A stretch of DNA of 61,105 nucleotides, taken from the NCBI GenBank assembly GCA_003222385.1, contig QHVV01000032.1, positions 1-61,105 of the forward strand, read 5' to 3'. The notes beneath the pieces were generated by a model. It made no database searches and had not been told where the DNA came from. It saw only the letters and a list, made by a program, of their open reading frames with translations. Positions 2,568 to 50,407 of the stretch are shown piece after piece. The stretch's first letter is position 1; each line of letters begins with the position of its first letter. Position numbers and translations under genes: made by a program. Origin of the DNA: Acidobacteriota bacterium (GTDB lineage Bacteria; Acidobacteriota; Thermoanaerobaculia; UBA5066; Gp7-AA6).

Positions 2568-2577
2568 GGGTTTCGCG

Positions 2578-3084
2578 CTATCCGTGGATCCGCTTCGTCA
2601 GCGCCGGAACGCGGCCCACGAGGCGCGCGTACACGGCGAGCTGCCCGCGGTGGTATTCCTCGTGGGAAATCCCGTGGTTCATCCAGGCGAGGCGCGTCCC
2701 CTTCTTCCCGTCGAAGCGGTTGATGAGCTGCAGCATGTGGAGCTCCCCCGCCGCGCGGATCCTCTTTTCGCCGTCGGTGTGGGTCTGCCGCAGCGCCGCG
2801 AGGAGCTGCCGTTTCGATCGCATTCCCGAGATCCCGCGCGCGTACTCGATCAACAAGCCTTCGTACGACTTGCGCCGGAAGTCTCCGTCGGGACGCGAGA
2901 GCTCTCCGGACATCAGGAGACCCGACTCGATGACGTGCTGGAGGAGCTCGATGATCGAGCGGCTCTTCTCCGACGCGCGGAACCCGAAGTCCTTTTCGGG
3001 AAGGTTTCGCGCCTCCTCCAGGACGCCGCCGCGCGTGTAGGACCAGGCCTCCAGGGCTTCTTCGAGCATGCTGCGAAAGTCCAT
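2578..3084 (-). CDS. DinB-family (DinB/YfiT-like four-helix bundle) protein
   Basis: 168-aa ORF. It has DinB-like helices with conserved His positions (LLQHVIES..., NHGISHEEYHRGQL). Confidence 0.8.
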   Translation of the reverse strand: MDFRSMLEEALEAWSYTRGGVLEEARNLPEKDFGFRASEKSRSIIELLQHVIESGLLMSGELSRPDGDFRRKSYEGLLIEYARGISGMRSKRQLLAALRQTHTDGEKRIRAAGELHMLQLINRFDGKKGTRLAWMNHGISHEEYHRGQLAVYARLVGRVPALTKRIHG

Positions 3085-3154: not shown

Positions 3155-5809
3155 CTACTTCCGAAGCCCGGACGTCCAGTTGAGAACGAGCGTCATCGGA
3201 TTCGGTGCGCCTTCCGCCGCCGGCATGTTGATCAGCAACCGCTGACCGTCGCGCGTGACGTCGGATCCCTGAGGGTGCGGCGTCAACAGGAGATCCGTTG
3301 GGGCCGACGACTGGAAAGAAGGCGCGGTCTGAATCTGGACGAGCTTCCGCTTGTCGGGGAGCTCCAGGTAGACGAGCTCGCGGCCGCCGCTCGTCCACCG
3401 TGGGCTTCGGCCGCTCGACGTCGAGACCTGGAACTTCTGACCCGTCGCCGGGAACGGCTGAACAAAAACCTCCTCTTTGCCGGTCTCGTTCGACCGATAG
3501 GCGATCCACCGGCCGTCGGGCGAGAAGCGTGCGTCATCCTCCTCGAACGGGGTCGCGAGCAGCGGAGTCGGCTTCCGATCTCCCGTCAGAGGCAGGAGCC
3601 ACAGATCTGATCCGGTCTTCGGATCCCTCTGCCGGTAGACGAGCCAGCGTCCGTCGGGACTGACGTCGATCGGATCCTTCCAGAGGTCGGATTTCAGCAG
3701 CTGAGTTTCGGAGCCGCCGCCCGTCGTCTCCTTTTGATAGAGGTCTCCGATCCCGGCCTTGTTCGAGCTGAAGAAGATCCGTTTGCCATCGGGCGACCAG
3801 ACCGGGTCGGATTCCCGCGCCGGGTCGAAGGTGAATCGCGAGCCGATCCCGCGCGAGTTGTCGATGATCCAAAGATCGGCGCTGCGTGTGGTCGGATCGA
3901 GGCGTTTGACGGCGACCGAAGAACCGTCCGGCGAGATCCGGGGGTCGCCGTCGTACTCGCCGTCCGGTCCCAGCGTCGAGATCCTCCTGCCGGACCGATC
4001 GAACCAGACGAGCTGCTTCGCGGCGTGACTCGCGCCCTCGTAGGCCAGCACGCCGTTGTCGGACGCCCAGAACGCGGCGGAACCCCACGTCGCGACGTAC
4101 TGGACGTCGCGACCGACGACGACCGGCTCGCCGGTCGTGCGGAACGCTTTCGCGTCGAACGGCTGCGCCACGAGAACGTTCTCGCGCACGAATAGGAGAT
4201 ATCCGGGTTTCGCGAAATAGGCCGGAACGTCCAGGTCGGCCACGCGCTTCACTCCTTTCGAATCGAGTGACCCGACGTAGATCCCGCTGTTCTGGGACGG
4301 CTCGGCGCGGGCGAGGTAGAGAAAGTGCCGTCCGTCCGGCAGGAACTGCGGCCGCCAGTGGCCGACTTCCCCGCGCGATTTGTCGAGCGTCGTGACCTGC
4401 TCGATCGGGCCGCCCGAGGCCGAAATGCGAAAGATGGAACTGGCGCCCGTCTTTTCGAACAGGATGACGTTGTCGCGGTTCCAGGAGCAGCCGCGGCCGT
4501 CGGCCATATCGGCGATCTTCTGCGGAGGGCCTCCCGGGATCTCGAACTTCATGAGGCCGGTTCCTCCAAACCCGATGAAACGGCCGTCCGGAGACCAGAA
4601 CGGATCGTACGACTCCCGCGTGCCTTCCAGTTTCTGTGCCTCGCCCGAATCGAGCGAGCGGACGAACAGCCATCCGATGCCGTCGGCGTCCTTCGCGTTG
4701 AACGCGACTTTTCGGCCGTCGGGAGAGACGACGGGGGGGCCGTCGATCGGATCGAAGAGCGTTCCGGGCGGCGGCAGGATCGATGCGCGGACCGGAACCG
4801 ACGGCTTCGGCGCGCGCTGGACGTAACCGATCGTCGGGGCCGCCGCGACGAGGGCCAGAACTCCGGCGATTCCCCAGGCGAGTCTTTCGCGGCTCTTTCT
4901 CCGCGCGACGACCGGCGCGGGCAACCCTGCAGCCGAGCCGCCTTCCGCGACCCATTTGAGCTCCAGCATCACGTCGTGCGCCGTCTGCCAGCGGTCGTCG
5001 GGATCCTTCGCGAGACAGGTCTTGACGACCCGGTCGAACGCGGGAGGCGTCATCGGCGCGACCGCCGAGACCGCAGGGGGCTGCGTCCCCATGATCGACG
5101 AGATCAGCGACGCCTGGCTCTTGCCGGAGAACGCTTTCTGCCCCGTCGCCATCTCGTAGAGCACCGCCCCGAACGCGAAGATGTCCGTCCGCGCGTCGGC
5201 TTCTCTTCCCTCGAGCTGCTCGGGCGCCATGTACTGGAACGTGCCCAGGATCGTGCCCTCCTGCGTCAGATTCGATCCCGCCTGAGTCGGCAGGGCCGTG
5301 AGCGACGCTCCGGAAGAGCGCCCCGCCGGCGCGATCACTTTCGCCAGACCGAAGTCGAGAAGCTTTACGCCGGACTTCGTGATCATCACGTTGCCGGGCT
5401 TGAGGTCGCGGTGCACGATTCCCTGCCGGTGCGCCTTGTCCAGGGCATCGGCCATCTCGATCCCGTAACGCAGTACCTGCTCGAACTCGAGCGGTCCCTT
5501 GAGAAGCCGGTCCGACAGCGTCTCGCCCTCCAGGTACTCCATGACCAGGAACTCGACGCCGTCCTGGTTGCCCACGTCGTAGAGCGCGCAGATGTGCGGA
5601 TGGGAGAGCTGGGAGATCGTCTTCGCCTCCCGCTCGAAACGTTGGCGCGACTCGACCGAAGACGACAGGTGCGCCGGCAGCACCTTGACCGCCACCGTGC
5701 GATCCAAGCGCGTGTCCTTCGCCCGGTAGACCTCTCCCATTCCGCCTGCGCCAATCGGCGCGAGAAGCTCGTAAGGCCCGAGACGGGTTCCCGCGGAAAG
5801 TGTGGTCAC
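3155..5809 (-). CDS. Ser/Thr protein kinase with TM segment and C-terminal TolB-like beta-propeller
   Basis: Kinase motifs [37 protein letters not shown], then TM ([19 protein letters not shown]) and many SPDG[KR] repeats. GTG at 5809 ([14 protein letters not shown]) is preferred over the track start 5974. Paralogs begin at the same motif, and the extra 55 codons are Arg-rich and unrelated. Confidence 0.9.
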
Positions 5810-6003
5810 AATCCGCACTTCCCGAGATAGCTGCTCTCGATCTGCGAAAGCATCTCTTCGATATCCGCGGTGGGAAACGAGTACCGGAGGGCGGCGCGAA
5901 CTGCCTCGATCTTTCTCCTCTCGCTTGAAACGGGATCCCTCCGGAGCGCAGTTCGGAGCGCACGGCGGACCCACACCGCCACTGTCGGGAGCCGCTCGCT
6001 CAT
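5806..6003 (-). CDS. small hypothetical protein (65 aa); tail resembles antitoxin-like helical proteins
   Basis: The third codon position is mostly G/C. Its TGA stop overlaps the kinase GTG start (GTGA at 5806..5809), the coupling pattern used throughout this window. Sequence ...[31 protein letters not shown]. No confident family assignment. Confidence 0.35.
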
Positions 6004-14174: not shown

Positions 14175-16875
14175 CTATTTTCTTAACGCAGCCGGCCAGT
14201 TCGAAACGAGGGTGACGGGCGTGTTTTGCGCCGTTTGCGGAACAACCGCCATCAGCTCGCGATCGCCGCTCGGGTCGCTCCGGAGAAGGGTCGCATTGCT
14301 CGCGTCGAAAAGCACTCTCGGGACGCCGGTTTCGAATCCGGAGGCGTCGGCTTTCACCTGCACGGACATCTGATTCAGATCGAGCGAGAGATAGGTAATC
14401 TCCTTGCCGCCCCGGAGCCACTCGCCGCCCGAGGCTCCTCCGGCGGAAATCTGCCATTTGCTGCCCGGCCCGGGAAAGGGCGCGACGTAGAGCTCGGGCC
14501 TCCCGGACTCGTCCGACGTGTACAGGACCCACCGTCCGTCCGGAGAAAACCGCGAAAACTGTTCGTCGAACTGTGTTGCGAGAAAAGGGAACGGCTTGCG
14601 ATCGCCGAAAAGCGGCAGGATCCAGATGTCGGACTTCGTTTTGGCAGCCGCTGCGAGAGTTTCGTAGGCGAGATAGCGCCCGTCCGGCGACCACGCTTTT
14701 GGACAGATATCGCCGCTGCCCTGAAGGAGCGTCTCCTCTCCGCCGCCGCCGCTCGACGGCCTCGCGACGATCCTCGTGAGAAGCGTTTTCTCCATCCGGG
14801 TGAAGGCGATCCGGCTTCCGTCCGGAGACCAGACCGGACAGATCGATTCACCGGAGCCGAAACTGAAACGCGTCCGGGTGCCGCGGGCGAAGTCGGAGAG
14901 CCAGATGTCGCCGGCCCCGGTGGTCGAATCGGCGACTTCAGCGGCCAGGCGCTTTCCGTCCGGAGAGATCGAGAACATCCGGTAGTCGATCGGATCGCCG
15001 AACGGCGCGCCGATCGGCTTTCCCGATCGGTCGTACCACGCGAGGCGCGCCTTCGAGCCGCCGGTGCCGCCCGCGTAGACCAGGACCCCGTTGTCCGAAA
15101 CGGAGAAGGCCGCCCGGAAATAACTGGGATCGTAAAGAACCGAGTCGCCGAGCGGAACCGAGTCGCCCGTCAGACGAAGGCGCTTCGCGTCGAAGGGCTG
15201 AGCGAGGAGCGTCTTCTCGAGCACGTAGATCAGGTAGCCCGACGCGAAGGCGACGTTCGATCGGGCGTGAACAAGAAGCGTTCGATCTTTCGAGTCGAGG
15301 GACGCGAGGTAGATCACGTTCATCTCGCTTCCGGTGCCGGACGCGTGCGTTCCGGCCATGTAGAGGAAGTGGCGGCCGTCCGGAAGAAATCGATTCGTCG
15401 AGCCGCGTCACCGGAGTCGCGGCGCCGCCGCCGGCGGAGACGCGATCGACCGCGACGGTTGAATCGGGCGAGAAGAGAATCACCCCGTCCCGGTTCCAGG
15501 ATCCCGACCTTCCGCGCTTCGCATCGCACACTGTGAGGGGCGGCCCGCCGGCGGCGTCGACCTTCTTCAACTTCCCTTCCGCGAAGAACGCGATGAAGCG
15601 GCTGTCGGGGGACCAGAACGGCCACGTCGCGCCTTCCGTCCCCGGAATCGACCGGGCGGCGACGGCATCGAGCGGCCGGAGCCAGAGCAGCTTCTTGCCC
15701 GACGGATCTTTGGCCACGAACGTGATCCGCCGGCCGTCGGGGGATATGGTCAGCGATCCGGAGTCCTCGCCCCCGATCTCGAAAGCCGTCTTCTCCGGCG
15801 GCAGGATCGAGGAGCGGATCGGCGCGGTTTCGACCGGCGCCCGGCGGACATATCCCAATGTCGCGAACCCGGCCGCGAGAATCGCTCCAGCGGCAACACT
15901 CCAGGCCATGCGCTCCCGGCTTCGGCGCCGCGAGACGACGACCGCCGGCGCTCCCGCCTGCGAGCCGCCTTCGACGATCCATTGGAGCTGGAGCTTCGCG
16001 TCGTGCGCGGTCTGGAAACGATCCTCGGGGTCCTTTGCGAGACACGTGCGGACGACCCGATCGAACGCCGGCGGCGTCATCGGCTGGATCGTCGAGACTG
16101 GCACCGGCTCCTCCTTCATGATGTTCGAGATCAACGACGCCCGGCTCGTGCCGGAGAAAGCCTTCCGGCCCGTCGCCATTTCGTAGAGCACGACACCGAA
16201 GGAGAAGATGTCCGTGCGCGGATCGGCTTCGTGCCCTTCGAGCTGTTCGGGCGCCATGTACTGGAAGGTCCCGAGGATCGTCCCCTCCTGGGTGAGGTTC
16301 GCGCTCCCCACCACCGTTGGCAGGGCTGTGACGTTGGCTCCTGCCATGGGATGCTGCCCGGCCGCCGCTTGCTCCCTTCCGGTCGCGTCGAGCGACCGCT
16401 CCAGTGTCTTCGCCAGACCGAAGTCGAGGAGCTTAACTCCCGACTTCGTGAGCATCACGTTGCCCGGCTTCAGGTCGCGATGGACGATTCCCTGCCGGTG
16501 CGCCTTGTCGAGCGCGTCCGCGATCTCGATTCCGAAGCGAAGCACCTGCTCGGTCGGGAGAGCTCCCCGGGCGAGGCGATCCTCGAGCGTCTTCCCCTCG
16601 AGAAGCTCCATGACGAGGTACTCGATCCCGCTTTCGCGCCCGACGTCGTAGAGCGCGCAGATATGCGGGTGAGAAAGCTGCGAGATCGTGCGGGCCTCGC
16701 GCTCGAAGCGCTGGCGCACCTCTTCGGAGGAGGAGAGACGTTCCGGAAGGACTTTGATCGCGACGCTTCGATCGAGGCGGGTGTCGCGCGCCCGGTAGAC
16801 CTCGCCCATGCCGCCCGATCCGAGCAGCGCGAGGATCTCGTAAGGCCCCAGCCGGGTGCCCGATGTCAGCGGCAA
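14175..16875 (-). pseudogene. third Ser/Thr kinase / TolB-like beta-propeller paralog, disrupted by a frameshift near 15390
   Basis: Kinase, TM and the first propeller blades are in the frame of ORF 14938..16875. The remaining blades ([13 protein letters not shown]...NWPAALRK) are in the +1 frame of ORF 14175..15359. After RLDES the first frame becomes Arg-rich nonsense, and the second frame has a TGA at 15408..15410. Confidence 0.8.
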
Positions 16876-20615: not shown

Positions 20616-21992
20616 CTAGGCCGAGACCTCGAGGTTGGCCGCGCGCCACGCCGCCATGCCCCCCACGACGTTCGTGATTCGATGGAATCCCTGCCGCTCG
20701 AGCAGGCTCGTTCCGATCGACGAGCGGAAGCCGCCGGCGCACACCACGGCGAGCGGCTCCTCCCTGGAGAGATCGTCGGCCTTTTCGGCGAGGTCGTTCA
20801 AGGGGAGGTGCAGCGCGGTGGCGATGTGTCCGGATTGCCACTCTCCGGGGCGGCGGACGTCGACGACCCGGACCGCGCCCTCTCGGAGGCGCTCGTCGAG
20901 CTCCGCGACGTTGATCTGCTCGAGGGTCGCAAGACGCAGTCCCGCGCGGTCCCACTCCAGGATCCCCCCGGCCAGGTAGCCCGCGACGTTGTCGAGGCCC
21001 ACCCGCGCGAGCCGCAGTCTCGCCTCGCGCACCTGCTCTTCGTCCTCCGCGACGATCAGCATCGGCGTGCCCGGCGAAACGAGCGCGCCCGCCCAGGAGG
21101 CGAACTGCCCCGAGAGGCCGATGTGGAGCGAACCGGGGACGTGCCCCGCGCCGTACTGCGCGGCGGGTCGGGTGTCGAGGACGATCGCGCCCTTCTTCTG
21201 AAGAACCTCCACGTCTCGGGCTTCGAGAGCCGGCGGATCAGGAAGCTCCGCCAGTTCGGATGCGCCTCCCCGGTTGATCGCGACGTCGCGCGAGAAGTAC
21301 GCCGGCGCTTCCGGAAGGTCCGTCGTCATCATCCGGACGAACTCCTCCTTCGGCATCGGCCGCAACGCGTAGTTGAACTGGCGCTGTTGCCCGATCGTCG
21401 AGCTCGTTTCGCTCGAGATGTTGCGCCCGCAGAGCGAGCCGGCGCCGTGCGCGGGGTACACCTCGACTGAGTCCGGCAGCGCGAGGAGCTTGTCGTGAAG
21501 CGAGTCGTAGAGCATGCCGGCGAGCTCCTGCGCGCTCATCTTCGAGCCGAGCAGATCCGGGCGGCCGACGTCGCCGATGAAGAGCGTGTCTCCCGTCAGC
21601 ACGGCCTTCGGAACGTCGGAGACGGACCGGTCGACGACCAGGATTGAAACCGACTCGGGCGTGTGGCCGGGGGTCTCCAGAAAACGCAGGACGACATCGC
21701 CCATCCGGATCTCGTCCCCGTCGTTCACCGGCACGTAGTCGAACTCCGCGCCGGCCTTCGCGCCGAAGTAGATCTTCGCCCCCGTACGGCGCGCGAGCTC
21801 CCGGTGCCCCGAGACGAAGTCCGCGTGGAGGTGCGTCTCGATGACGTGCCGGATGCGGAAGCCGCGCTCCTTCGCTTCGTCGATGTACGTGTCGACGTCG
21901 CGGCGGGGGTCGACGACGGCGGCCTCCCCGTCCGATCCGATCAGGTAAGACGCGTGGGCGAGGCAGCCCAGGTAGAACTGTTTGAAAAACAT
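20616..21992 (-). CDS. MBL-fold persulfide-dioxygenase-like domain fused to rhodanese domains
   Basis: ETHLHADFVSGH (HxHxDH) metallo-beta-lactamase motif near the N-terminus. C-terminal rhodanese with active-site loop VVCAGGFRSS. Confidence 0.88.
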   Translation of the reverse strand: MFFKQFYLGCLAHASYLIGSDGEAAVVDPRRDVDTYIDEAKERGFRIRHVIETHLHADFVSGHRELARRTGAKIYFGAKAGAEFDYVPVNDGDEIRMGDVVLRFLETPGHTPESVSILVVDRSVSDVPKAVLTGDTLFIGDVGRPDLLGSKMSAQELAGMLYDSLHDKLLALPDSVEVYPAHGAGSLCGRNISSETSSTIGQQRQFNYALRPMPKEEFVRMMTTDLPEAPAYFSRDVAINRGGASELAELPDPPALEARDVEVLQKKGAIVLDTRPAAQYGAGHVPGSLHIGLSGQFASWAGALVSPGTPMLIVAEDEEQVREARLRLARVGLDNVAGYLAGGILEWDRAGLRLATLEQINVAELDERLREGAVRVVDVRRPGEWQSGHIATALHLPLNDLAEKADDLSREEPLAVVCAGGFRSSIGTSLLERQGFHRITNVVGGMAAWRAANLEVSA

Positions 21993-28677: not shown

Positions 28678-30711
28678 CTACCCCTCCAGCCGTTTCCTCG
28701 CGTTTCGCTCGAGAAGGAAGATGAGCACCGCGAACGCGATCGCGCAGAGGATCCCGCCGCTCACGAGACCGTTCTTGAGATCCGGATAGAGCTTCGTTCC
28801 CAGGTCGAGAAAGTCCGGAAGCGACGGGTGCTCCATGTGGAGAACGGTGTCGCCGAAGAATGCGACGAACGCGATCAAGACCCCGCCGAGCGAGCCCCCG
28901 GCGACGAGACCCGTGGCATAGAGCATTCCGGAGGAGAGCTCGGATTCTTCGCCGACGGCATGCTCCTTCCGCCGCCTCCAGGCATCGACCCAGGCCTTGA
29001 CCATGCCGCCGATCCAGATCGGCGCGGTCGTCGAGACCGGAAGATAGGCGCCGACGGCCCACGAAAGGGCGTGCGCCCCGGCAAGCTGCGCCATGAAGGC
29101 GAGGAAGACGCCGACCAGGACGGGCGCCCAGGGCAGGTTCTGCGCGAGCAGACCCTTGATGATCGTGGCCATCAACGTCGCTTGCGGGGCGGGAAGCTGG
29201 GGGCCGCCGATCCCGTGGAGCTCGTTCGGACCGCGGTATGTCCGGTCGAGCATGAAGAGCGTGATCGCGATGACGAAGGCGGACGTCACGACCCCGATCA
29301 CGAACCCGAGCTGCTGGGAGCGGGGCGTCGCCCCGACGAGATAGCCGGTCTTCAGGTCCTGCGACGTGGCCCCGGCGTTGGCCGCCGCGACGCAGACGAT
29401 CGCGCCGACGCAGAGAGCCACGGCCTGGTAGACGTCGCCTCTCCAGCCGATCACGACGAAGACGATGCACGTTGCCATCAGCGTCGCGATCGTCATCCCG
29501 GAGATCGGGTTGGAAGAGGTCCCGATGATGCCGACGATGCGGGAGGAGACCGTCACGAAGAAAAACCCGAAGACGACGATCAGGAGCGACATCAGGAGAG
29601 AGCCGGGGAAGGGCCCGTGCGGGAAGCCGGGCAGTATCGCCAGCACGAGCACGATCGCGAGCGATCCGATCACCACGATCCCCATCCCGAGGTCTCTCTC
29701 GGTTCGCCGGACGCCGGATGCCGGTCCGACTCCGCCCCGGAAGCTCTTGACCGACTCGCGGAACGCCGAAACGATGGTCGGCAGCGTCTTGATGAGCGTC
29801 ATCACTCCCGCGCAGGCGACCGCGCCCGCGCCGATGTAACGGATGTAGGCGCGATAGAGCCAGTTGGCGTAGGAGTTGTTCGCCATCCAGGCATCCGAGA
29901 AACCCAGGTTGTGGAGATCCTGCACCACGCGCGTCTCCGGTACGAAGATGGCGATCAGCGGGATCAGCGCCATCCAGGCGAGAAGCCCTCCCGAGAAGAG
30001 CTCCGACGAGATTCGCGGCCCGATGATGTAGCCCAGGCCCAGGTATTCCGGGGTCACCGCGACGTCGAGCGTGGCCGCTGGATACGTCGCGGACTCCTTC
30101 TTCGTCCGGAAGAAGATCGGGGCCTCCCGCCACAGGCCGAGGATCCCGTACAGGAACTTGTAGAGGAGCGATGCGCCGACCCCCGCGAAGACCATCCTGG
30201 CGAGGTTGCCGCCGCGCTCCCCCGCGATGAGGACGTCGGCGCAGGCCGTGCCCTCCGGATACGGCAGCTTCCCGTGCTCCTTGACGATGAGGGCGCGCCG
30301 CAGCGGGATCATGAAGAGGACGCCGAGCGTGCCTCCGAAGATCGCCAGGATCGTGATCTGGAAGTAGCGGAAGAAGTTCTCGCCTCCCGCAAGGAAGAGG
30401 AGAGCCGGGACCGTGAACACGACGCCCGCGGCGACGGATTCGCCGGCCGAGCCGATCGTCTGGACGATGTTGTTCTCCAGGATCGTCGACTTGCCGATCT
30501 TCTTGAAGACCGCGATCGCCAGGACCGCGATGGGCACGGACGCCGACACGGTCAGTCCGGCGCGCAGAGCGAGGTAAACGGTGGCCGCTCCGAAAAGAAC
30601 ACCGAAGACCATGCCGAGGATGATCGCTTTCGGCGTGAACTCGGCGGGCGCTTCGCCGGCCGGAACGTAGGGCCGAAACTCCGCGCCGGGCTTCTCGGGG
30701 ACGTTCGCCAT
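28678..30711 (-). CDS. OPT-family oligopeptide transporter
   Basis: 677 aa, polytopic. N-terminus …EFTPKAIILGMVFGVLFGAATVYLALRAGLTVSASVPIAVLAIAVFK is the characteristic OPT opening. AAGGAGG lies upstream of the ATG. Confidence 0.9.
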   Translation of the reverse strand: MANVPEKPGAEFRPYVPAGEAPAEFTPKAIILGMVFGVLFGAATVYLALRAGLTVSASVPIAVLAIAVFKKIGKSTILENNIVQTIGSAGESVAAGVVFTVPALLFLAGGENFFRYFQITILAIFGGTLGVLFMIPLRRALIVKEHGKLPYPEGTACADVLIAGERGGNLARMVFAGVGASLLYKFLYGILGLWREAPIFFRTKKESATYPAATLDVAVTPEYLGLGYIIGPRISSELFSGGLLAWMALIPLIAIFVPETRVVQDLHNLGFSDAWMANNSYANWLYRAYIRYIGAGAVACAGVMTLIKTLPTIVSAFRESVKSFRGGVGPASGVRRTERDLGMGIVVIGSLAIVLVLAILPGFPHGPFPGSLLMSLLIVVFGFFFVTVSSRIVGIIGTSSNPISGMTIATLMATCIVFVVIGWRGDVYQAVALCVGAIVCVAAANAGATSQDLKTGYLVGATPRSQQLGFVIGVVTSAFVIAITLFMLDRTYRGPNELHGIGGPQLPAPQATLMATIIKGLLAQNLPWAPVLVGVFLAFMAQLAGAHALSWAVGAYLPVSTTAPIWIGGMVKAWVDAWRRRKEHAVGEESELSSGMLYATGLVAGGSLGGVLIAFVAFFGDTVLHMEHPSLPDFLDLGTKLYPDLKNGLVSGGILCAIAFAVLIFLLERNARKRLEG

Positions 30712-30802: not shown

Positions 30803-30817
30803 TGAAGCTTTCTTCTT

Positions 30818-30892
30818 GTCATCCCCAGCGAAGCGAGGGATCTCTCCGTGATGGAAAATCAGATTCCTCGTCGCTTCGCTCCTCGGAATGAC
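30818..30892. repeat. palindromic REP/MITE-like element (GTCATCCCCAGCGAAGCGAGGGATCT ... AGATTCCTCGTCGCTTCGCTCCTCGGAATGAC)
   Basis: The two arms are imperfect reverse complements. The right arm is near-identical to the reverse complement of 37082..37113. Confidence 0.7.
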
Positions 30893-30931
30893 AACCATGA
30901 GGCGGCCTGCCCGGCCTGCCGGCTAAACCCC

Positions 30932-31147
30932 TCAGGTTCCTCCGAAGCCGATCGTGACCTTTCCGCCCTCGACGATGACCGGAACGCGCCGGCCGCCGGA
31001 AACGCGGATCATCCGGTCGAGCTCCCGCGCGTCGCGCTTCACGTCGATGTAGGTGAAGGGAATTTTCCGACGCGCGTAGTCCTCACGGGCCGCGGTCGTG
31101 TGGGGTCAGCCGTCCTTCCCGAAGATCTCGGTTCGCGTGGTTTCCAT
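30932..31147 (-). CDS. glutaredoxin-like protein with in-frame TGA at the redox-Cys position (candidate selenoprotein, U-P-H-T motif)
   Basis: Not in the ORF track. Reverse complement reads METTRTEIFGKDG[TGA]PHTTAAREDYARRKIPFTYIDVKRDARELDRMIRVSGGRRVPVIVEGGKVTIGFGGT*. GGAGG lies 4 nt upstream of the ATG. TGA at 31106..31108. The full Grx fold exists only if the TGA is decoded. Confidence 0.65.
31069..31097 (-). promoter_or_regulatory. candidate bacterial SECIS-like stem-loop downstream of the in-frame UGA
   Basis: mRNA positions +9..+37 after the UGA read GACCGCG GCCCGUGAGGACUA CGCGCGUC. The pairing is GAC-CGCG with CGCG-(C bulge)-GUC, and the apical region contains a GU. Folded by eye only. 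Confidence 0.35.
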
Positions 31148-31207
31148 CCGACCTCCGCGCCGATCATAAGCCGGCGTGCCGATTTCGGGCTATCATCGAA
31201 AAGACGC

Positions 31208-31903
31208 ATGGCGGCGCGCTTTTCCGTCGTCGGGGGGCTCGTTTTCCTCCTTTCTTTCATGGCTTTCGGCCCCCGCGCCGCGGGCTCCGCCGGTTCCGTG
31301 AGCGGTCGGATCGTGCTCGCGAAGTCGGGCACTCCGCGAGCCGACGCATCCAACGCCGTCGTGTGGATCGAAGGCCCGCGCGGGGCGACCGGATCCGCCG
31401 CCCCGCTTCGAATGGCGCAGGAGTCGAAGCGCTTCGTCCCCCGGGTCCTGATCGTGCCGCGGCACGGGACCGTCGAGTTCCCGAACGACGACCCGGTCTT
31501 CCACAACGTCTTCTCCGTTTCGGGAGCGAACCGGTTCGACCTCGGGCTCTACCGAAGCGGCGCCTCGAAGAGCCGGACTTTCGCGGAGCCCGGCCTCGTC
31601 CGCGTCTACTGCAACATCCACCCGCAGATGGTCGGGTTTCTGATGGTCGTCGATTCCGGCTTCGGCGCCATCACCGGCAAGGACGGGGTCTTCCACTTCG
31701 AAGGGGTGCCCGCCGGCTCGTGGACGATCAAGGCCTGGCACGAAGAAGGATCGGAAACGAGCGTCCCGCTGTCCATCCCGCTCGCCGCGGGCGCGCCGCT
31801 CATCCTCACGATCGACACGACCGCTTACCGCCCCGTCCCGCACAGGAACAAGTACGGCAAGGAGTATCCGCCGCAGTCGGGATCGGACGATGAGCGCTAC
31901 TGA
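31208..31903 (+). CDS. secreted amicyanin-like type-1 copper (cupredoxin) protein with C-terminal carboxypeptidase-regulatory-like domain
   Basis: Start is the ATG at 31208 (signal-like MAARFSVVGGLVFLLSFMAFG). Cu-ligand pattern FPNDDPVFHNV ... YCNIHPQM (H99, C135-x2-H138-x2-M141), the same spacing as amicyanin CTPHPFM. Then GKDGVFHFEGVPAGSWTIKAWHE. Confidence 0.75.
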   Translation: MAARFSVVGGLVFLLSFMAFGPRAAGSAGSVSGRIVLAKSGTPRADASNAVVWIEGPRGATGSAAPLRMAQESKRFVPRVLIVPRHGTVEFPNDDPVFHNVFSVSGANRFDLGLYRSGASKSRTFAEPGLVRVYCNIHPQMVGFLMVVDSGFGAITGKDGVFHFEGVPAGSWTIKAWHEEGSETSVPLSIPLAAGAPLILTIDTTAYRPVPHRNKYGKEYPPQSGSDDERY

Positions 31904-33998
31904 AAGAGCGACTCCGGCTCCGATCACGATCGTTCCACGGGTCGCGAGCGGCCTGAAGCTCCCGCCGCCCGAGCCGCCCCGATTCTCGCTATCGTTCAAG
32001 ATCTTCTTCGCGGCGGCGCTCCTGATCCTGGTCGCCGTGGGCGGAGCGATCGCGATTTCCGCGGCCCGCGCCCGCTCGATCGCCGACTCGAAGATCGCGG
32101 AGGACCTGAAGAAATCGGGGGGCGCCTGGGAGTCGTTTCAGCGCAACCGGTACGACGAGCTCCACCGGGCTCTGGCGGTCGTGGTCAACAACGCCGGGAT
32201 CATCTCGGTCATGACGCAACTCGACCCGACGACCGCGCGGGACACGCTGAAGCTCGAGCAGGCATCGAGTACGCGCGCGAATTTCCTCGTCGCCATCAAC
32301 CAGGAAGGCACGGCGTTCGCGCGCACCGACCGGCCGCTCCCATACTCCCGCGACATGCGCGGCGTTCCCACGGTTGCCTCGGCCCTGCAGGGCGAGGCCG
32401 CGGAAGGGATCTGGCTGTCGGACCAGCATCTGTACCACGTCGTGGCCGCTCCCGTGCTGGAAGGGGGCAGCCGCTCGGTCGGCGCGATCGCCGCGGGTTT
32501 CCAGATCAACGACGAAGTCGCCGCCAGCCTGAAGTCGCTCGTCAACGCCGAAGTGGTTTTCCTCGCCGACGGGGCGCGCCTGAACGAGCCGGCGAAACCG
32601 GTCGTCGCCGCGTCGACGATGAAAGACGCGAACGCTTCCGTCCTCTCGGCGATCCGGAACACTCCGCACCTCGTCCCCGTCGTCCTGCGGGAAGGCAAGA
32701 CAATCGGGCCCCTGGAGCTCGAAGTCTCCGGCGATACGTACCTCGCGTACTTCTTGCCGATCCGCTCGTCCACCGATCAGCTCGTGGGCGCGGCGGTGAC
32801 CCTGCGAAGCCGCGAGCGCGAGCTCGCTCCTTTCCGGCGGATTCAGAACAGCCAGGTCCTCGTGGGGCTCGCGGCGCTGGTGTTCGCATTCGTTCTGTCC
32901 TTTGTCCTCGCCCGCCGGATCACGGGACCCGTGGATCGGCTGGTCCGCGCGGCCGAGGCGGTGCGGATTGGAGACCTCGGAACGGAGGTGCCGGTCGAGT
33001 CGAACGACGAGATCGGGATCCTCGCGCGCTCGTTCAAGGCGATGCTCGAGGAGCTGAAGGAGAAGGCGGCGCTCGAGAAGTACGTGGCCTCGCTCCCCAT
33101 CTCGATCGGCGGAGAAGAAACTCTGCTCGCGGGGCGCACGCCCACGGCCGCCAGCGGGAGCGTGACGTCGCAGAACGAGCCGCAGATCGGCACGCTCTTC
33201 GCCGGCCGCTACGACATCCAGTCGATCCTGGGCAAGGGAGGCATGGGGATCGTCTACAAGGCGCACGACCGCGAGCTCGACGACCTCGTCGCGATCAAGA
33301 CCCTTCGGAGCGAGGTCCTTTCCGCCGACCCGACTCTGCTCGATCGGTTCAAGCAGGAGATCCGACTGGCGCGCCGCATCACGCACCCGAACGTACTCCG
33401 CACGCACGATCTCGGCGAGTGGAACGGGCTGCGGTACCTGTCGATGGAGTTCGTGAAAGGGCTGACCCTGAAGCATCTTCTCGAGTCGGACGAAATCCTC
33501 CCGACGCCGGTCGGTCTGCGCATCGCCAAGCAGGTCTGCGCGGGCCTCGCCGCGGCGCACGAGGTCGGGGTCATCCATCGCGACGTCAAACCGCAGAACA
33601 TCCTGATCGAGCCGACCGGGGGTCTCAAGATCATGGACTTCGGCATCGCCCGTCTGACGGAGGACCGCGGGATGACCGCCACGGGTACGGTCATCGGCAC
33701 GCCGGATTACATGTCGCCCGAGCAGGCGCGCGGAGTCCCGCTCGACTTCCGGTCCGACATCTACTCGACCGGTATCGTCCTCTACGAAGTCTTCAGTGGT
33801 TCTCTCCCGTTCGACCTCGCCGTGGTCCTGAAGCACGTCAACGAGCCGCCGCCGCTCCCGCAGTCGAAGAATCCGCGGATCGACCCGAAGATCGCGGTCA
33901 TCATCATCAAGTGCATGCAGAAGGAGCCGGCCGCGCGATACCAGAGCGTCGGGGAGCTGTACGAGGCACTGGCGAAGGTGACGGCCCAGGCCGCGTGA
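31890..33998 (+). CDS. membrane sensor Ser/Thr kinase: TM, ~290-aa periplasmic Cache-like domain, TM, HAMP, coiled coil, C-terminal kinase
   Basis: TM1 FKIFFAAALLILVAVGGAIAI. TM2 plus HAMP VLVGLAALVFAFVLSFVLARRITGPVDRLVRAAEAVRIGDLGTEVPVESNDEIGILARSFKAM. Kinase motifs GKGGMGIVYKA, HRDVKPQNILI, DFGIAR, GTPDYMSPEQ. Overlaps the upstream cupredoxin gene by 14 nt. Confidence 0.88.
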   Translation: MSATERATPAPITIVPRVASGLKLPPPEPPRFSLSFKIFFAAALLILVAVGGAIAISAARARSIADSKIAEDLKKSGGAWESFQRNRYDELHRALAVVVNNAGIISVMTQLDPTTARDTLKLEQASSTRANFLVAINQEGTAFARTDRPLPYSRDMRGVPTVASALQGEAAEGIWLSDQHLYHVVAAPVLEGGSRSVGAIAAGFQINDEVAASLKSLVNAEVVFLADGARLNEPAKPVVAASTMKDANASVLSAIRNTPHLVPVVLREGKTIGPLELEVSGDTYLAYFLPIRSSTDQLVGAAVTLRSRERELAPFRRIQNSQVLVGLAALVFAFVLSFVLARRITGPVDRLVRAAEAVRIGDLGTEVPVESNDEIGILARSFKAMLEELKEKAALEKYVASLPISIGGEETLLAGRTPTAASGSVTSQNEPQIGTLFAGRYDIQSILGKGGMGIVYKAHDRELDDLVAIKTLRSEVLSADPTLLDRFKQEIRLARRITHPNVLRTHDLGEWNGLRYLSMEFVKGLTLKHLLESDEILPTPVGLRIAKQVCAGLAAAHEVGVIHRDVKPQNILIEPTGGLKIMDFGIARLTEDRGMTATGTVIGTPDYMSPEQARGVPLDFRSDIYSTGIVLYEVFSGSLPFDLAVVLKHVNEPPPLPQSKNPRIDPKIAVIIIKCMQKEPAARYQSVGELYEALAKVTAQAA

Positions 33999-37081: not shown

Positions 37082-37209
37082 GTCATTCCGAGGAGCAAAG
37101 CGACGAGGAATCTCCGGCCCTATAGGGAAAAGATTCCTCGCGGAGCCTGCTCTGAGCGGAGCACTCACTTGGAAACGACGTCGGGATTCCTCGCTGCGCT
37201 CGGAATGAC
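37082..37209. repeat. composite copy of the GTCATTCCGAGG...GGAATGAC palindromic element
   Basis: Outer arms GTCATTCCGAG (37082..37092) and CTCGGAATGAC (37199..37209). Inner hairpin CGAGGAATCT (37104..37113) / AGATTCCTCG (37131..37140). The left arm is about the reverse complement of 30862..30892. Confidence 0.7.
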
Positions 37210-46973: not shown

Positions 46974-48557
46974 ATGCCGCCGCCCATGACGTCGATCCCG
47001 CTCCAGCGATATCCCGGACTGCCGCCGCTCTTTCTCGATTTCGTGCGGGGAGCGAGCCGGTTCCATCCCGATCCCCCGACTCTCGATGCCGCGCTCGAGC
47101 GCGGCAAGACGATCCTCTCCGGCGGGCGCCGTCGCCTGCCGGTCACGGCGTTCCGGTTCCGCTCGACCGCCGGCCGACGCGCGGCCGAAGACCTCGCGGG
47201 AGGCCGCGCGGTCGCGGTGCTGGCGGGCCACCAGATCGGTCTCTTCACGGGGCCGCTCTACACACTCGTGAAAGCGTTCGACGCAATCCTTCTCGCGCGG
47301 GAACTCACTCAGCGGGGCCTGCCGGCAGTGCCCGTGTTCTGGGCTCTGACCGACGACCACGACCTCGAGGAAATCGCGAAGACCGCGAAACCCGGTCCCG
47401 ACGGGCCGCAGAGCTTCGTCCTCGAAGGCGCGGACCGATCGAACCGCCGTCCGGTCGGTTCGCTCCCGATTCCCGGCGCCGTTTCACGGATCGTCGAAGC
47501 GTTCCGGAAAGACGGTCCGGGCGAAGAAGCGGCCGAAATCCTGGATCTGGCGGCGCGCCGATACGCCGCCGGAACGACGTACGGCGAGGCCTTCATCGAG
47601 AGCCTCCTCGACTTGACGGAGGACGATGCCCTCTTAGTCGTCGATCCGCTCGAGGAACCGATCGCACAGGCCGCCCGGGAGCTCTTCTCGATCGGGCTCG
47701 AGCGTCGCGCCGAGATCGGCCAGACCCTGCGCCAGACCGCGCTGGCGATCGAACAGACAGGCCGCAAGCCTGCCGTCCCGTTCCGTGAAGAAGTCTTTCC
47801 ATTCTTCGTGCTCGAGGACGGGATCCGGCGGCGCGTCGAGGCCGCCGAGCTCGAAGAGGCCGGGAGCCGGGTGTCGCAAGGAGAGCTCGGCGTCTCGGCC
47901 GACGTCCTGACCCGGCCGGTGCTGAAGTCCGTCGTGCTCCCGGTCGCGGCGAGCGTCCTCGGGCCGAGCGAGATCGCCTACCACGCGCAGTCCCTCACGC
48001 TCTTTCCGATCTTCGACGCTCCCCTTCCGGTGCTCGTCCCCCGGACGTTTCTCGTCGTGCGGGGAGCCGCCGAGCGTCGCGCGGCCCAGGCCCTGGGCGT
48101 GGCCGACGAGGATCTGCTCGCCCCGCGGGCCGCGGCGCGCGAGGCCGCAGTCGTTCCCCAGGCGGATCGGGTCTGCGAAATCGCTCAGCGGCTGGACGCC
48201 GAGATGGCGACGCTCGCGCCCGAAGTCGAGGCGCTCGATCCGACGCTGGCGGGCGCTCTCGAAACCGCGCGCCGGAAAGCCGCGTACCAGCTGGAGCAGC
48301 TCGGAGAGCGGATGCGCAAGGCCGCGGAACGGAAAGACGAAGTCGCCCTGGCCCGCCGGCGGAGGCTGGAGACCATGCTCCTGCCGGGCGGGGAGCCGGC
48401 GGAACGCGTCTATCCCCCAATCGTTTTCCTCCGGATTTGGGGCGAGAGCGTGCTCGACGCGATTCGGTCGGTGGCGGGCAGCGGCGGCCGCGAGGTCCGG
48501 ATCGTCGACGCGGATGCGGCGGCCGATGCGCAGCCGAAGAGAAGCCGTGCCGGTTGA
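46974..48557 (+). CDS. bshC: bacillithiol biosynthesis cysteine-adding enzyme BshC
   Basis: AVAVLAGHQIGLFTGPLYTLVKAFDAILLARELTQRGLPAVPVFWALTDDHDLEEI parallels B. subtilis BshC VVGGQQAGLLTGPLYTIHKI...PVIPIFWVAGEDHDLDEI (from memory). Confidence 0.8.
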   Translation: MPPPMTSIPLQRYPGLPPLFLDFVRGASRFHPDPPTLDAALERGKTILSGGRRRLPVTAFRFRSTAGRRAAEDLAGGRAVAVLAGHQIGLFTGPLYTLVKAFDAILLARELTQRGLPAVPVFWALTDDHDLEEIAKTAKPGPDGPQSFVLEGADRSNRRPVGSLPIPGAVSRIVEAFRKDGPGEEAAEILDLAARRYAAGTTYGEAFIESLLDLTEDDALLVVDPLEEPIAQAARELFSIGLERRAEIGQTLRQTALAIEQTGRKPAVPFREEVFPFFVLEDGIRRRVEAAELEEAGSRVSQGELGVSADVLTRPVLKSVVLPVAASVLGPSEIAYHAQSLTLFPIFDAPLPVLVPRTFLVVRGAAERRAAQALGVADEDLLAPRAAAREAAVVPQADRVCEIAQRLDAEMATLAPEVEALDPTLAGALETARRKAAYQLEQLGERMRKAAERKDEVALARRRRLETMLLPGGEPAERVYPPIVFLRIWGESVLDAIRSVAGSGGREVRIVDADAAADAQPKRSRAG

Positions 48558-49269
48558 CGTCCTCGCGATCGCCGCCCACCCCGACGACGTCGAGCTGACG
48601 TGTGGGGGCACGCTCGCCGGCTTGAAGGCGCAGGGCCGAAAGTTCGGAATCGTGGACCTGACGCGCGGGGAGCTCGGCACGCGGGGGTCCGACGCGATCC
48701 GCCGCAAGGAAGCGGAACGGGCGGCGGAGATCCTCGGTGCCGAGTTCCGGGAGACGCTCGACTTCGGCGACGGCCGGATCTCCGGCACTCGCGAACAGGA
48801 GCTTTCGGTCGTCGACCTGATCCGGCGGGAGAGGCCGAGGCTGATCCTCACCTCCTATCCGGAGGACCGTCATCCCGACCACGCGCGCGCGGGAAGGCTC
48901 GTCACTGACCTCGCGTTCTACGCCGGGCTGAGGAAGATCGAGACGAGTCATCCGGCCCATCGGCCGCAGCAGACGATCTACTTTTCTACCGGTTACCTCC
49001 ACGAGCCGGACTTCGTAGTCGACGTCACGGCGGCCATGGAGACCCGGAGAGCCGCCATCCGGGCCTTCTCGAGCCAGTTTCACAGCGAGGCATCGACGGA
49101 GCCGGTGACCGTTCTTTCGCAGAAGAGCTTCCTCGATGCCATGGATGCGCGCGCGCGCCACTTCGGTTTCCTGATCGGCGTCGAGTTCGCCGAAGGCTTC
49201 CGGTCGAAGCGGCCTCCGAAGCTCGACGACATCGTGGCCGCGTTCGAGGGCTTCGAGCCCGGGTTCTGA
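48547..49269 (+). CDS. bshB: PIG-L family deacetylase, bacillithiol biosynthesis BshB1-like
   Basis: GTG at 48547 gives VPVDVLAIAAHPDDVELTCGGTLA (AHPDD motif). It overlaps the bshC end by 11 nt. Confidence 0.82.
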   Translation: MPVDVLAIAAHPDDVELTCGGTLAGLKAQGRKFGIVDLTRGELGTRGSDAIRRKEAERAAEILGAEFRETLDFGDGRISGTREQELSVVDLIRRERPRLILTSYPEDRHPDHARAGRLVTDLAFYAGLRKIETSHPAHRPQQTIYFSTGYLHEPDFVVDVTAAMETRRAAIRAFSSQFHSEASTEPVTVLSQKSFLDAMDARARHFGFLIGVEFAEGFRSKRPPKLDDIVAAFEGFEPGF

Positions 49270-49282
49270 GCGCGGGCGCGCC

Positions 49283-50407
49283 ATGAAAATCGGCATCACC
49301 TGTTACCCCACCTACGGCGGGAGCGGCGTCGTCGCGACCGAGCTCGGGCTCGCGCTCGCCGAGCGCGGCGACGAAGTGCACTTCATTTCGTACGACCTTC
49401 CTTCGCGCCTGGCGCTTCCGAGGCCCCGCGTGTACTTTCACGAGGTCGTCGCGCCGACCTATCCGCTCTTCGTGTCTCCGCCGTACACGCTCGCCCTCGC
49501 GACGAAGATGGCCGAGGTCGCCGAGCGCGCGGGTCTCGATCTCCTCCACGTGCACTACGCCCTGCCCCACGCGATCTCCGGGATCCTTGCGCGGGAGATG
49601 AGCGACGGCAACGGCGTCCGGATGAAGGTCGTGACGACGCTTCACGGCACCGACATCACGATCGTCGGCCAGGACCGGTCCTATCTCCCGATCACGCGGT
49701 GGGGAATCGAGCAGAGCGACGCAGTCACTGCGGTCTCGCGGTACCTGACGGAGATGACGATCCGCGAGCTCGGCGTGCGGCGGACGGTCGAGACGATCCC
49801 GAACTTCGTGGACCCGAAGCGCTACACGCCGGACGGCGCATCCAGCTTCGCCCGCACGCTGGCGAGCGACGGCGAAGCCGCCATCGTCCACGTTTCGAAT
49901 TTCCGGCCGGTGAAGCGGATCGGCGACGTCCTGGAAGTCTTCGACCGGATCCGACGGCGGATCCCGGCGCGGCTCCTCCTGATCGGCGACGGTCCGGAAC
50001 GCTCGCTCGCCGAGAGGCTCGCCCGGGACCTCGGGTTCGAGGATCGCGCGACGTTCCTCGGAAACGTCGTGGCGATCGAGACGGTTTTGCCGGTCGGGAA
50101 GCTGTTGCTCCTACCATCCGACGCCGAATCGTTCGGCCTGGCAGCGCTGGAAGCGATGGCCTGCGGAGTGCCGGTCATCGGAACGGCCGCCGGCGGCCTG
50201 CCCGAAGTCGTCGAAGACGGCGCGAGCGGCTTCTTGAAGCCGGTCGGCGACGTGGAGGGAATGGCGGAAGCGGCCCTCGAGCTCCTGACCGACGCCGATC
50301 GGTGGGCGCGATTCTCGAAGGAGGCGCGGCGAAGGGCGGTCGAGGAATTCCCGACCCGCGAGATCGTCTCGCGCTACCGGAAACTCTACGAGGAGACGCT
50401 CGGCTGA
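49283..50407 (+). CDS. bshA: N-acetyl-alpha-D-glucosaminyl L-malate synthase BshA (GT4 glycosyltransferase)
   Basis: MKIGITCYPTYGGSGVVATELGLALAERGDEVHFI closely parallels the BshA N-terminus KIGITCYPSVGGSG..ATELG..LA..GHE.HFI. Confidence 0.85.
   Translation: MKIGITCYPTYGGSGVVATELGLALAERGDEVHFISYDLPSRLALPRPRVYFHEVVAPTYPLFVSPPYTLALATKMAEVAERAGLDLLHVHYALPHAISGILAREMSDGNGVRMKVVTTLHGTDITIVGQDRSYLPITRWGIEQSDAVTAVSRYLTEMTIRELGVRRTVETIPNFVDPKRYTPDGASSFARTLASDGEAAIVHVSNFRPVKRIGDVLEVFDRIRRRIPARLLLIGDGPERSLAERLARDLGFEDRATFLGNVVAIETVLPVGKLLLLPSDAESFGLAALEAMACGVPVIGTAAGGLPEVVEDGASGFLKPVGDVEGMAEAALELLTDADRWARFSKEARRRAVEEFPTREIVSRYRKLYEETLG

Follow-up and report, generated by a model that had tools for sequence, protein, structure and literature searches.

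A probable double-selenocysteine glutaredoxin-like gene of UXX-star family 1 on an Acidobacteriota contig

Contig QHVV01000032.1 of the Acidobacteriota bacterium assembly GCA_003222385.1 was analysed as one stretch of 61,105 nucleotides (hereafter the window), and its minus strand holds a short glutaredoxin-like reading frame with an in-frame TGA at the position of the redox-active Cys. The question raised by this locus is whether that codon is read as selenocysteine (Sec, U), is read as some other residue, or marks a gene that has lost its function. An earlier reading made from the letters alone (the sequence-only reading) had transcribed the frame as 31147..30932, and re-translation matched it exactly: the strand reads METTRTEIFGKDG-TGA (31108..31106)-PHTTAAREDYARRKIPFTYIDVKRDARELDRMIRVSGGRRVPVIVEGGKVTIGFGGT-TGA (30934..30932), and the GGAGG said to lie 4 nt ahead of the ATG was seen at 31156..31152. 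The gene is also, as had been noted, invisible to the list of open reading frames (ORFs), in which no conventional ORF covers it and the minus-strand ORFs at this place are in other frames only. The 3′ end had been misjudged. The second TGA was taken for a stop at 30932, whereas the frame continues through GGG GTT TAG (30931..30923) to the ending ...G-G-T-U-G-V-stop; the gene ends at 30923, and the C-terminal Sec that defines the family was missed, as was a selenocysteine insertion sequence (SECIS) in the 3′ untranslated region (UTR). The locus is very probably a bona fide member of UXX-star selenoprotein family 1, a 74-residue protein of glutaredoxin fold with two selenocysteines.

The family assignment comes from profile scans against NCBIfam and Pfam in which U was replaced by C. 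The 71-residue version of the protein, with the tail excluded, scored 103.7 bits against NF041114, "UXX-star selenoprotein family 1" (an equivalog model with a cutoff of 72). With the tail residues included the score rose to 112.8 bits; it was 99.2 bits with X at both Sec sites, and only with the U-G-V tail were profile positions 2–70 of 70 covered; because the tail both lifts the score and completes the profile, the name "UXX-star" can be understood as U-x-x-stop. This tail is present as TGA GGG GTT TAG at 30934..30923, and the N-terminal U-x-x-T motif is present as U-P-H-T at residues 14–17. The parent model NF041212, "Uxx-star family glutaredoxin-like (seleno)protein", gave scores of 94.5 bits and, for the 71-residue version, 87 bits (cutoff 66), and the NCBI "Uxx-star" family that had been named in the sequence-only reading was therefore the right one, both models scoring above their cutoffs. 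The sole Pfam match was the generic Glutaredoxin domain (37.8 bits, cutoff 22.9). Scores for the Grx3-type glutaredoxins (TIGR02181, 28.8 bits, cutoff 90), the NrdH-redoxins (TIGR02194, 23.3 bits, cutoff 85.75) and the YruB family (TIGR02196, 44.1 bits, cutoff 88.55) lie far below the thresholds, which places the protein outside the classical glutaredoxins and these other families, and the mycoredoxin models were well under cutoff.

All features that define family 1 are found in the window copy, namely a glutaredoxin-like domain, U-x-x-T, a C-terminal G-G-T-U-x-x-stop and two Sec; it differs in having His for the commoner Tyr in U-P-H-T and in a bulged, imperfect 3′ SECIS, neither of them an essential difference. 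UXX-star families 2 and 3 and the HUGP/GUXX-star fusion (NF041211, NF047338 and NF045501) have the glutaredoxin-like core and the U-x-x-stop tail in common with it, but gave only partial matches of 52–55 bits, far under their cutoffs of 100, 97 and 325. Families 2 and 3 are reportedly the subject of a 2025 paper by Haft and Tolstoy. Family 1, including its double-Sec nature, has already been described: a 2026 review enters it as "Distant Grx-like protein 1" with the motif UxxT and 2 Sec (PMC13188914), and the family is not named in the main text of the cited Global Ocean Sampling paper. The window gene thus belongs, as an ordinary member, to a family that has already been curated and published.

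Relatives were collected by a scan of one genome per species, which gave 80 loci (L numbers below) whose DNA was read in frame. The nearest, at identities up to 87%, are soil metagenome-assembled genomes of the Thermoanaerobaculia (Acidobacteriota), and others come from the Vicinamibacterales, Binatia, Methylomirabilota/NC10, Fervidibacter, Desulfobacterales, Syntrophales, Desulfobacterota, Nitrospirota and further groups. TGA stands at the N-terminal site in 69 of 78 loci and a Cys codon in the other 9, with 2 further loci cut off before the site; the ortholog column to which the sequence-only reading had drawn attention is therefore not an all-TGC/TGT column. Three soil metagenome contigs encode the identical protein with the same TGA. 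Over the 57 codons between the two TGAs, dN/dS (nonsynonymous relative to synonymous change) was 0.05–0.37 against 16 relatives (13–23 synonymous and 4–18 nonsynonymous differences), which shows that the gene is translated past the first UGA, its downstream codons being under purifying selection.

The C-terminal site is covered by 78 of the loci, and every one of them has TGA there; TAA and TAG do not occur. Exactly two codons and then a stop follow in 74 of the 78 (GV in 50, EV in 9, AV in 4, and others), and these genuine stops are mixed (TAG 30, TGA 25, TAA 19). An ordinary stop should vary as the genuine stops do, and the tail TGA, being invariant, is therefore not an ordinary stop. No case of Cys at the tail position was found in the 78 genomic relatives or among the top database homologs, and the tail Sec appears to be obligate. 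Chance falls far short of explaining a pattern in which both TGA columns recur in dozens of genomes and the family profile scores so high.

Entries for the family in protein databases either stop at GFGG[T/S] or show W at both sites, the latter including P0001, which is the window's own protein; such entries are artefacts of truncation or mistranslation. Trp occupies both Sec positions in public metagenome gene calls (P0001–P0009, P0013, P0072 and P0085; loci L001–L003), some of which are labelled "glutaredoxin 3", and the entries for relatives with Cys-14 end prematurely at GFGGT. P0005, a Joint Genome Institute metagenome protein, reads GKDT-V-PYTT, with Val where all other homologs have Sec or Cys. 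Some relatives (L056, L068 and L074, also L060 and L065) have a full C-x-x-C or U-x-x-C and a longer C terminus, e.g. GEASLRGGIPLFGGT-U-SV, so that the tail Sec is kept together with a dithiol site; these probably belong to other UXX-star families.

The hairpins that would direct Sec insertion were compared with the published bacterial SECIS (bSECIS) model, which calls for G in the first two loop positions, a spacing of 16–37 nt, a minimum free energy of −7.5 kcal/mol or lower and an upper stem of 4–16 bp. Both elements of the window lie within the ranges for spacing, loop G and energy. SECIS 1, within the coding region, is predicted to consist of a lower stem CGACCGCG/CGCG(C)GUCG, an internal loop and a 2-bp apical mini-stem under the apical loop (C)GUGA, whose G-U falls at +23/+24 from the first UGA. 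The SECIS of Escherichia coli fdhF has this same G23/U24 spacing, and the window elements have in common with fdhF and the bSECIS consensus an apical loop with G followed by G or U, about 19–21 nt past the UGA.

Comparative data argue for SECIS 1 as a conserved structure. In an ungapped alignment of 67 distinct Sec-form sequences, pair 20–28 is an invariant C-G, 58 sequences have CG and 8 have UA at pair 21–27, pair 18–30 occurs as four types (GC, CG, GU and AU) and the lower pair 15–36 is GC in 18, CG in 15, UA in 3 and AU in 2. None of 500 column shuffles gave as high a covariation score, and slid registers scored much lower. Codon usage gives a second line of evidence. Of 70 Sec forms, 53 use CGU for the Arg codon at nucleotides 22–24, which holds the apical G-U, 10 use AGG, 6 use CGG and none uses CGC, whereas CGC makes up 40% and CGU 6% of Arg codons in the window's genes; among the Cys forms CGU is found at this codon in 1 of 11 (Fisher p ~4e-5 versus the Sec forms). 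The Ala codon ahead of that Arg is restricted to GCC or GCU in Sec forms only. Together these patterns point to an RNA-level constraint at SECIS 1 that is coupled to the presence of UGA, and the conserved hairpin that the earlier reading had proposed to look for downstream of the first TGA is borne out by covariation and synonymous-codon locking.

Only two codons come after the second UGA, and SECIS 2 therefore lies almost wholly in the 3′ UTR. This sets it apart from the bSECIS consensus, elements of which are typically within coding regions (PMC13188914). Its G-rich loop begins at +23 from the second UGA, and a possible lower stem would extend the element to 30892..30925. In the relatives the hairpin starts ~12 nt past the second UGA, and for 64 of 75 loci its loop begins between +20 and +24. 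From dinucleotide shuffles 23 loci would be expected to have a perfect stem of 5 bp or more at this position, but 72 of the 75 have one; stems of 7 bp or more number 56, where the shuffles predict 4.3 (maximum 10 in 200 shuffles), and 43 different stem arms occur. A T-run follows the hairpin in only 5 of the 75 loci, so these hairpins are not terminators. A covariance model trained on nine other loci matched the window at 30908..30934 with 20.6 bits (E ~0.007 in 1 Mb); the alignment derived from it contained reverse-strand palindromic matches and was left out of the pair counts. MAFFT with RNAalifold gave no consensus structure for the 3′ region because the hairpins are offset by 1–4 nt, and Rfam gave no match at gathering or permissive thresholds. 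SelB–GTP–Sec-tRNA(Sec) would bind at each of the two hairpins, the UGA at both sites being decoded as Sec, presumably by SelB-dependent insertion. The true stop is itself TGA in 25 of 74 loci (e.g. L007, L008, L010 and L011), where two UGAs stand 6 nt apart; the Sec-UGA and the stop-UGA are presumably told apart by their distance to the single 3′ hairpin.

Several results weigh against Sec insertion at these two codons. No selA, selB or selD was found in the 61-kb window (Pfam and NCBIfam, 40 predicted genes) or in ~1 Mb of related loci, and ARAGORN detected no tRNA-Sec in the window and 60 related loci. Taken alone, neither predicted structure stands out: the SECIS 1 fold has −14.1 kcal/mol and z 0.27, not significant, and the 3′ region −15.8 kcal/mol and z −0.5 to −1.2, likewise unremarkable. 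The upper stem of SECIS 1 in this clade is 2 bp above the internal loop, a poor fit to the 4–16 bp of the bSECIS model, and shared ancestry, together with coding constraints, inflates the covariation statistics. The window's SECIS 2 is bulged and fails the perfect-stem test, as does that of the relative L005.

The features that frame this reading and its surroundings are collected in Table 1.

Table 1. Coordinates of the predicted gene, its signals and its immediate neighbours in the window
Feature	Position	Strand	Basis
Probable double-Sec coding sequence, 74 residues, METTRTEIFGKDG-U-PHTT...GFGGT-U-GV then TAG	30923..31147	minus	frame read and NF041114
Ribosome-binding site GGAGG, 4 nt 5′ of ATG 31147	31152..31156	minus	sequence
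Predicted first Sec codon UGA, residue 14, redox motif U-P-H-T	31106..31108	minus	N-terminal Cys position of glutaredoxins
Candidate SECIS 1, +11..+41 from UGA-14	31068..31098	minus	fold and comparative support
Predicted second Sec codon UGA, residue 72, three codons ahead of the true stop	30932..30934	minus	sequence and family profile
Predicted true stop TAG, after U-G-V	30923..30925	minus	sequence
Candidate SECIS 2 (apical part), GGC(A)GGCC-GGGCA-GGCCGCC, 7 bp, bulged A	30901..30920	minus	fold and covariance model
OPT oligopeptide transporter, downstream, same strand	28678..30711	minus	domain scan
Secreted 231-residue protein, divergent, 60 bp between start codons	31208..31903	plus	domain scan

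What the protein does was approached through its predicted fold. AlphaFold2, given the database version of the sequence and 52 homologs, returned a model with a predicted local distance difference test (pLDDT) score of 85 and a predicted template modelling (pTM) score of 0.73, with the topology beta1-alpha1-beta2-alpha2-beta3-beta4; it lacks the third helix that classical glutaredoxins have, the chain ending after beta-4, and residues 69–72 have pLDDT below 50, which corresponds to a flexible tail G-G-T-U-G-V. Foldseek placed the model at template modelling (TM) scores of 0.7–0.8 to Archaeoglobus fulgidus Grx-1, the E. coli Grx3–glutathione complex, BC3987 and NrdH, and a sequence search for solved structures found no close relative. 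With classical dithiol glutaredoxins such as E. coli Grx3 and with the NrdH-redoxins, the protein has in common the thioredoxin/glutaredoxin fold, the cis-Pro (V-P) and the G-G turn; it differs from them in its Thr for the second Cys, the missing C-terminal helix, a Sec nucleophile and the tail Sec. Residue 14 occupies the site of the nucleophilic Cys of the CxxC motif.

In the proposed chemistry, Thr would replace the resolving Cys of CxxC, and the short Sec tail would take the place of the usual C-terminal helix. The tail starts at the GG turn bordering the active site. Because Thr replaces the resolving Cys and the tail begins beside the active site, Sec-72 is most likely the resolving partner of residue 14 in a Se–Se redox couple, as judged from the modelled fold. 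The protein would then alternate between a bis-selenol, its reduced form, and an intramolecular diselenide, or a selenenylsulfide in the Cys-14 relatives. Counting against this mechanism, the modelled sequence carried Trp at the Sec sites, and the Se–Se couple was arrived at by reasoning on the fold alone.

Animal thioredoxin reductase offers a partial parallel. Its Gly-Cys-Sec-Gly (GCUG) sits on a mobile tail at the C terminus, by which redox equivalents are carried into and out of a buried active site, and for production of the enzyme in E. coli a bacterial SECIS must be placed past the stop codon. A Sec in the penultimate region of a flexible tail is thus common to both, and the post-stop SECIS arrangement appears to occur naturally in the window gene, but the reductase is a large flavoenzyme of unrelated fold, and its Sec has a neighbouring Cys as partner and not a distant Sec.

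The main competing function is possible, if on the whole unlikely: the two selenolates might form a chelating site of very high affinity for soft metals or metalloids (Cu, Hg, As or Cd) or carry Se itself, the protein acting as a chaperone or trap. Chemistry beyond sulfur comes into consideration because the tail Sec is never Cys, be it in the 78 genomic relatives or among the best-matching database proteins, while the active-site position toggles between Cys and Sec, and in this clade the divergent gene next to it encodes a secreted cupredoxin of the type-1 copper kind. Both the fold and the U/C-P-Y/H-T motif are, however, typical of thiol-disulfide oxidoreductases, no metal-resistance genes are consistently adjacent and the neighbours vary among phyla, and the linkage to the cupredoxin and OPT genes is limited to one acidobacterial clade with general synteny. 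More doubtful is the extension of this idea to the family as a whole, with soft metal, metalloid or Se being carried or trapped in place of a reductase role of the glutaredoxin type and, in the Thermoanaerobaculia, with the gene working alongside the OPT transporter and a cupredoxin–sensor-kinase module.

The remaining alternatives concern the decoding itself. A protein with a single Sec, in which the second TGA is the stop, G-V-TAG stays untranslated and the 3′ hairpin serves as a terminator or mRNA stabiliser, is very improbable. The window's 3′ hairpin is imperfect and weak alone (z −1.2), and the palindrome resembling a repetitive extragenic palindromic (REP) element that lies directly after it could itself stabilise the mRNA; but a tail codon that is TGA in 78 of 78 loci beside mixed genuine stops, exactly two sense codons with conserved G-V in 74 loci, the 9 bits that the tail adds to the family hidden Markov model score in completing the profile, and hairpins at a fixed distance with G-rich loops and, in 70 of 75 loci, no U-tract all argue for Sec at this site as well.

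A recoding of TGA to another residue, be it Trp or Gly, or Cys by way of a selC*-tRNA(Cys) or allo-tRNA opal suppressor, is highly improbable here. The public record of the window gene, P0001, does have W at both sites, and tRNA-Sec-like suppressor tRNAs have been reported in Acidobacteria and Deltaproteobacteria (PMC5389517). TGA, however, ends 25 of the 45 predicted genes of the window as an ordinary stop, and the code is therefore not reassigned; general code reassignment was rejected on this ground. The sites in the relatives, moreover, alternate with Cys and not with Trp or Gly, SECIS-type hairpins at canonical spacing point to SelB-dependent decoding, and in NCBI's curated model the family carries the name selenoprotein. 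No second selenoprotein gene turned up in the window, either in profile scans or in a search for internal TGA codons flanked by coding signal. Acidobacteria as a phylum have been reported to have selenoproteins (PMC1794560), and the organism itself presumably has the Sec trait.

That the gene is dead, its Cys codon (TGY) mutated to TGA or misread as TGA in sequencing or assembly, is scarcely credible and was rejected, for although no standard ORF covers the gene and no Sec machinery was seen in the window, the same TGA recurs in 69 independent genomes and in the three metagenome contigs with the identical protein, dN/dS is low downstream of it (0.05–0.37), and the RNA-level codon locking is specific to TGA-bearing forms. 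A Sec-recoded gene of glutaredoxin fold with U at the N-terminal Cys site, as the sequence-only reading had proposed, is accordingly the account that the family models, the TGA-or-Cys orthologs, the purifying selection and the hairpin favour.

The significance of the locus lies mainly in annotation, since standard gene callers miss the gene entirely. The selenoproteome of soil Acidobacteriota is under-counted because the gene is missed, mistranslated with Trp or truncated at GFGGT in public metagenome databases. The window copy opens no new question by itself. It is nevertheless a compact natural case of two predicted Sec insertions in 74 residues, one of them driven by a 3′-UTR SECIS, and a tractable member of UXX-star family 1 would make a useful entry point to the family's function. 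If this reading is true, the family would represent natural use of a 3′-UTR SECIS in bacteria, with UGAs 6 nt apart read first as Sec and then as stop.

The product of the divergent gene has a signal peptide, a type-1 copper cupredoxin domain (FHNV...YCNIHPQM; PDB 5fc9 at E 4e-5) and a weak CarboxypepD_reg-like match in its C-terminal domain. Beyond it lie a dCache/HAMP Ser/Thr kinase, a porin-like protein and an asparaginase, and the cupredoxin frame overlaps the start of the kinase gene (31890). The pairing of a cupredoxin with a sensor kinase is unusual and is kept in ~21–24 acidobacterial loci. Among the related loci the gene layout recurs in ~25 from the Acidobacteriota and in no other phylum, and in L043 the glutaredoxin-like gene alone is inverted. 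An operon with the OPT transporter was considered and downgraded, the linkage being that of one acidobacterial clade with general synteny and the inversion in L043 speaking against it; the arrangement reads as clade-level synteny around an independent transcription unit rather than as a functional operon.

Between the selenoprotein gene and the OPT gene there is a near-perfect palindrome (30816..30894, minus strand; core GTCATTCCGAGGAGCGAAGCGACGAGGAATC, −60 kcal/mol, z −5), which overlaps the possible lower stem of SECIS 2. Copies were seen at ~37082..37112 (plus strand) and in L004, L008, L010, L011, L014 and L016, in keeping with a dispersed repeat of the REP or miniature inverted-repeat transposable element (MITE) kind that is common to related Thermoanaerobaculia. 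As a part of the selenoprotein system this hairpin was rejected, being a dispersed REP-like repeat.

The bacillithiol cluster mentioned in the earlier reading is complete, with BshC-BshB1-BshA at 46974..50407 (plus strand; BshB1 and BshA above their equivalog cutoffs, BshC at cutoff), 16–19 kb from the selenoprotein gene. A tie of that gene to a bacillithiol and thiol-redox network, as suggested in the earlier reading, is conjectural. Because the cluster is complete, the low-molecular-weight thiol may be bacillithiol instead of glutathione. A fusion of a metallo-beta-lactamase with a double rhodanese, an architecture like that of persulfide dioxygenases, is encoded at 20616..21992 (minus strand), and L085 has a comparable Lactamase_B/Rhodanese pair ~5 kb away from its family member, possibly by coincidence. 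Four Ser/Thr kinase genes were counted in the 61 kb (~700..2580, 3155..5974, 14938..16875 and 31890..33998), the first of them recognised from its translation only, and two of the four kinases have beta-propeller (TolB/PD40-like) C-terminal regions.

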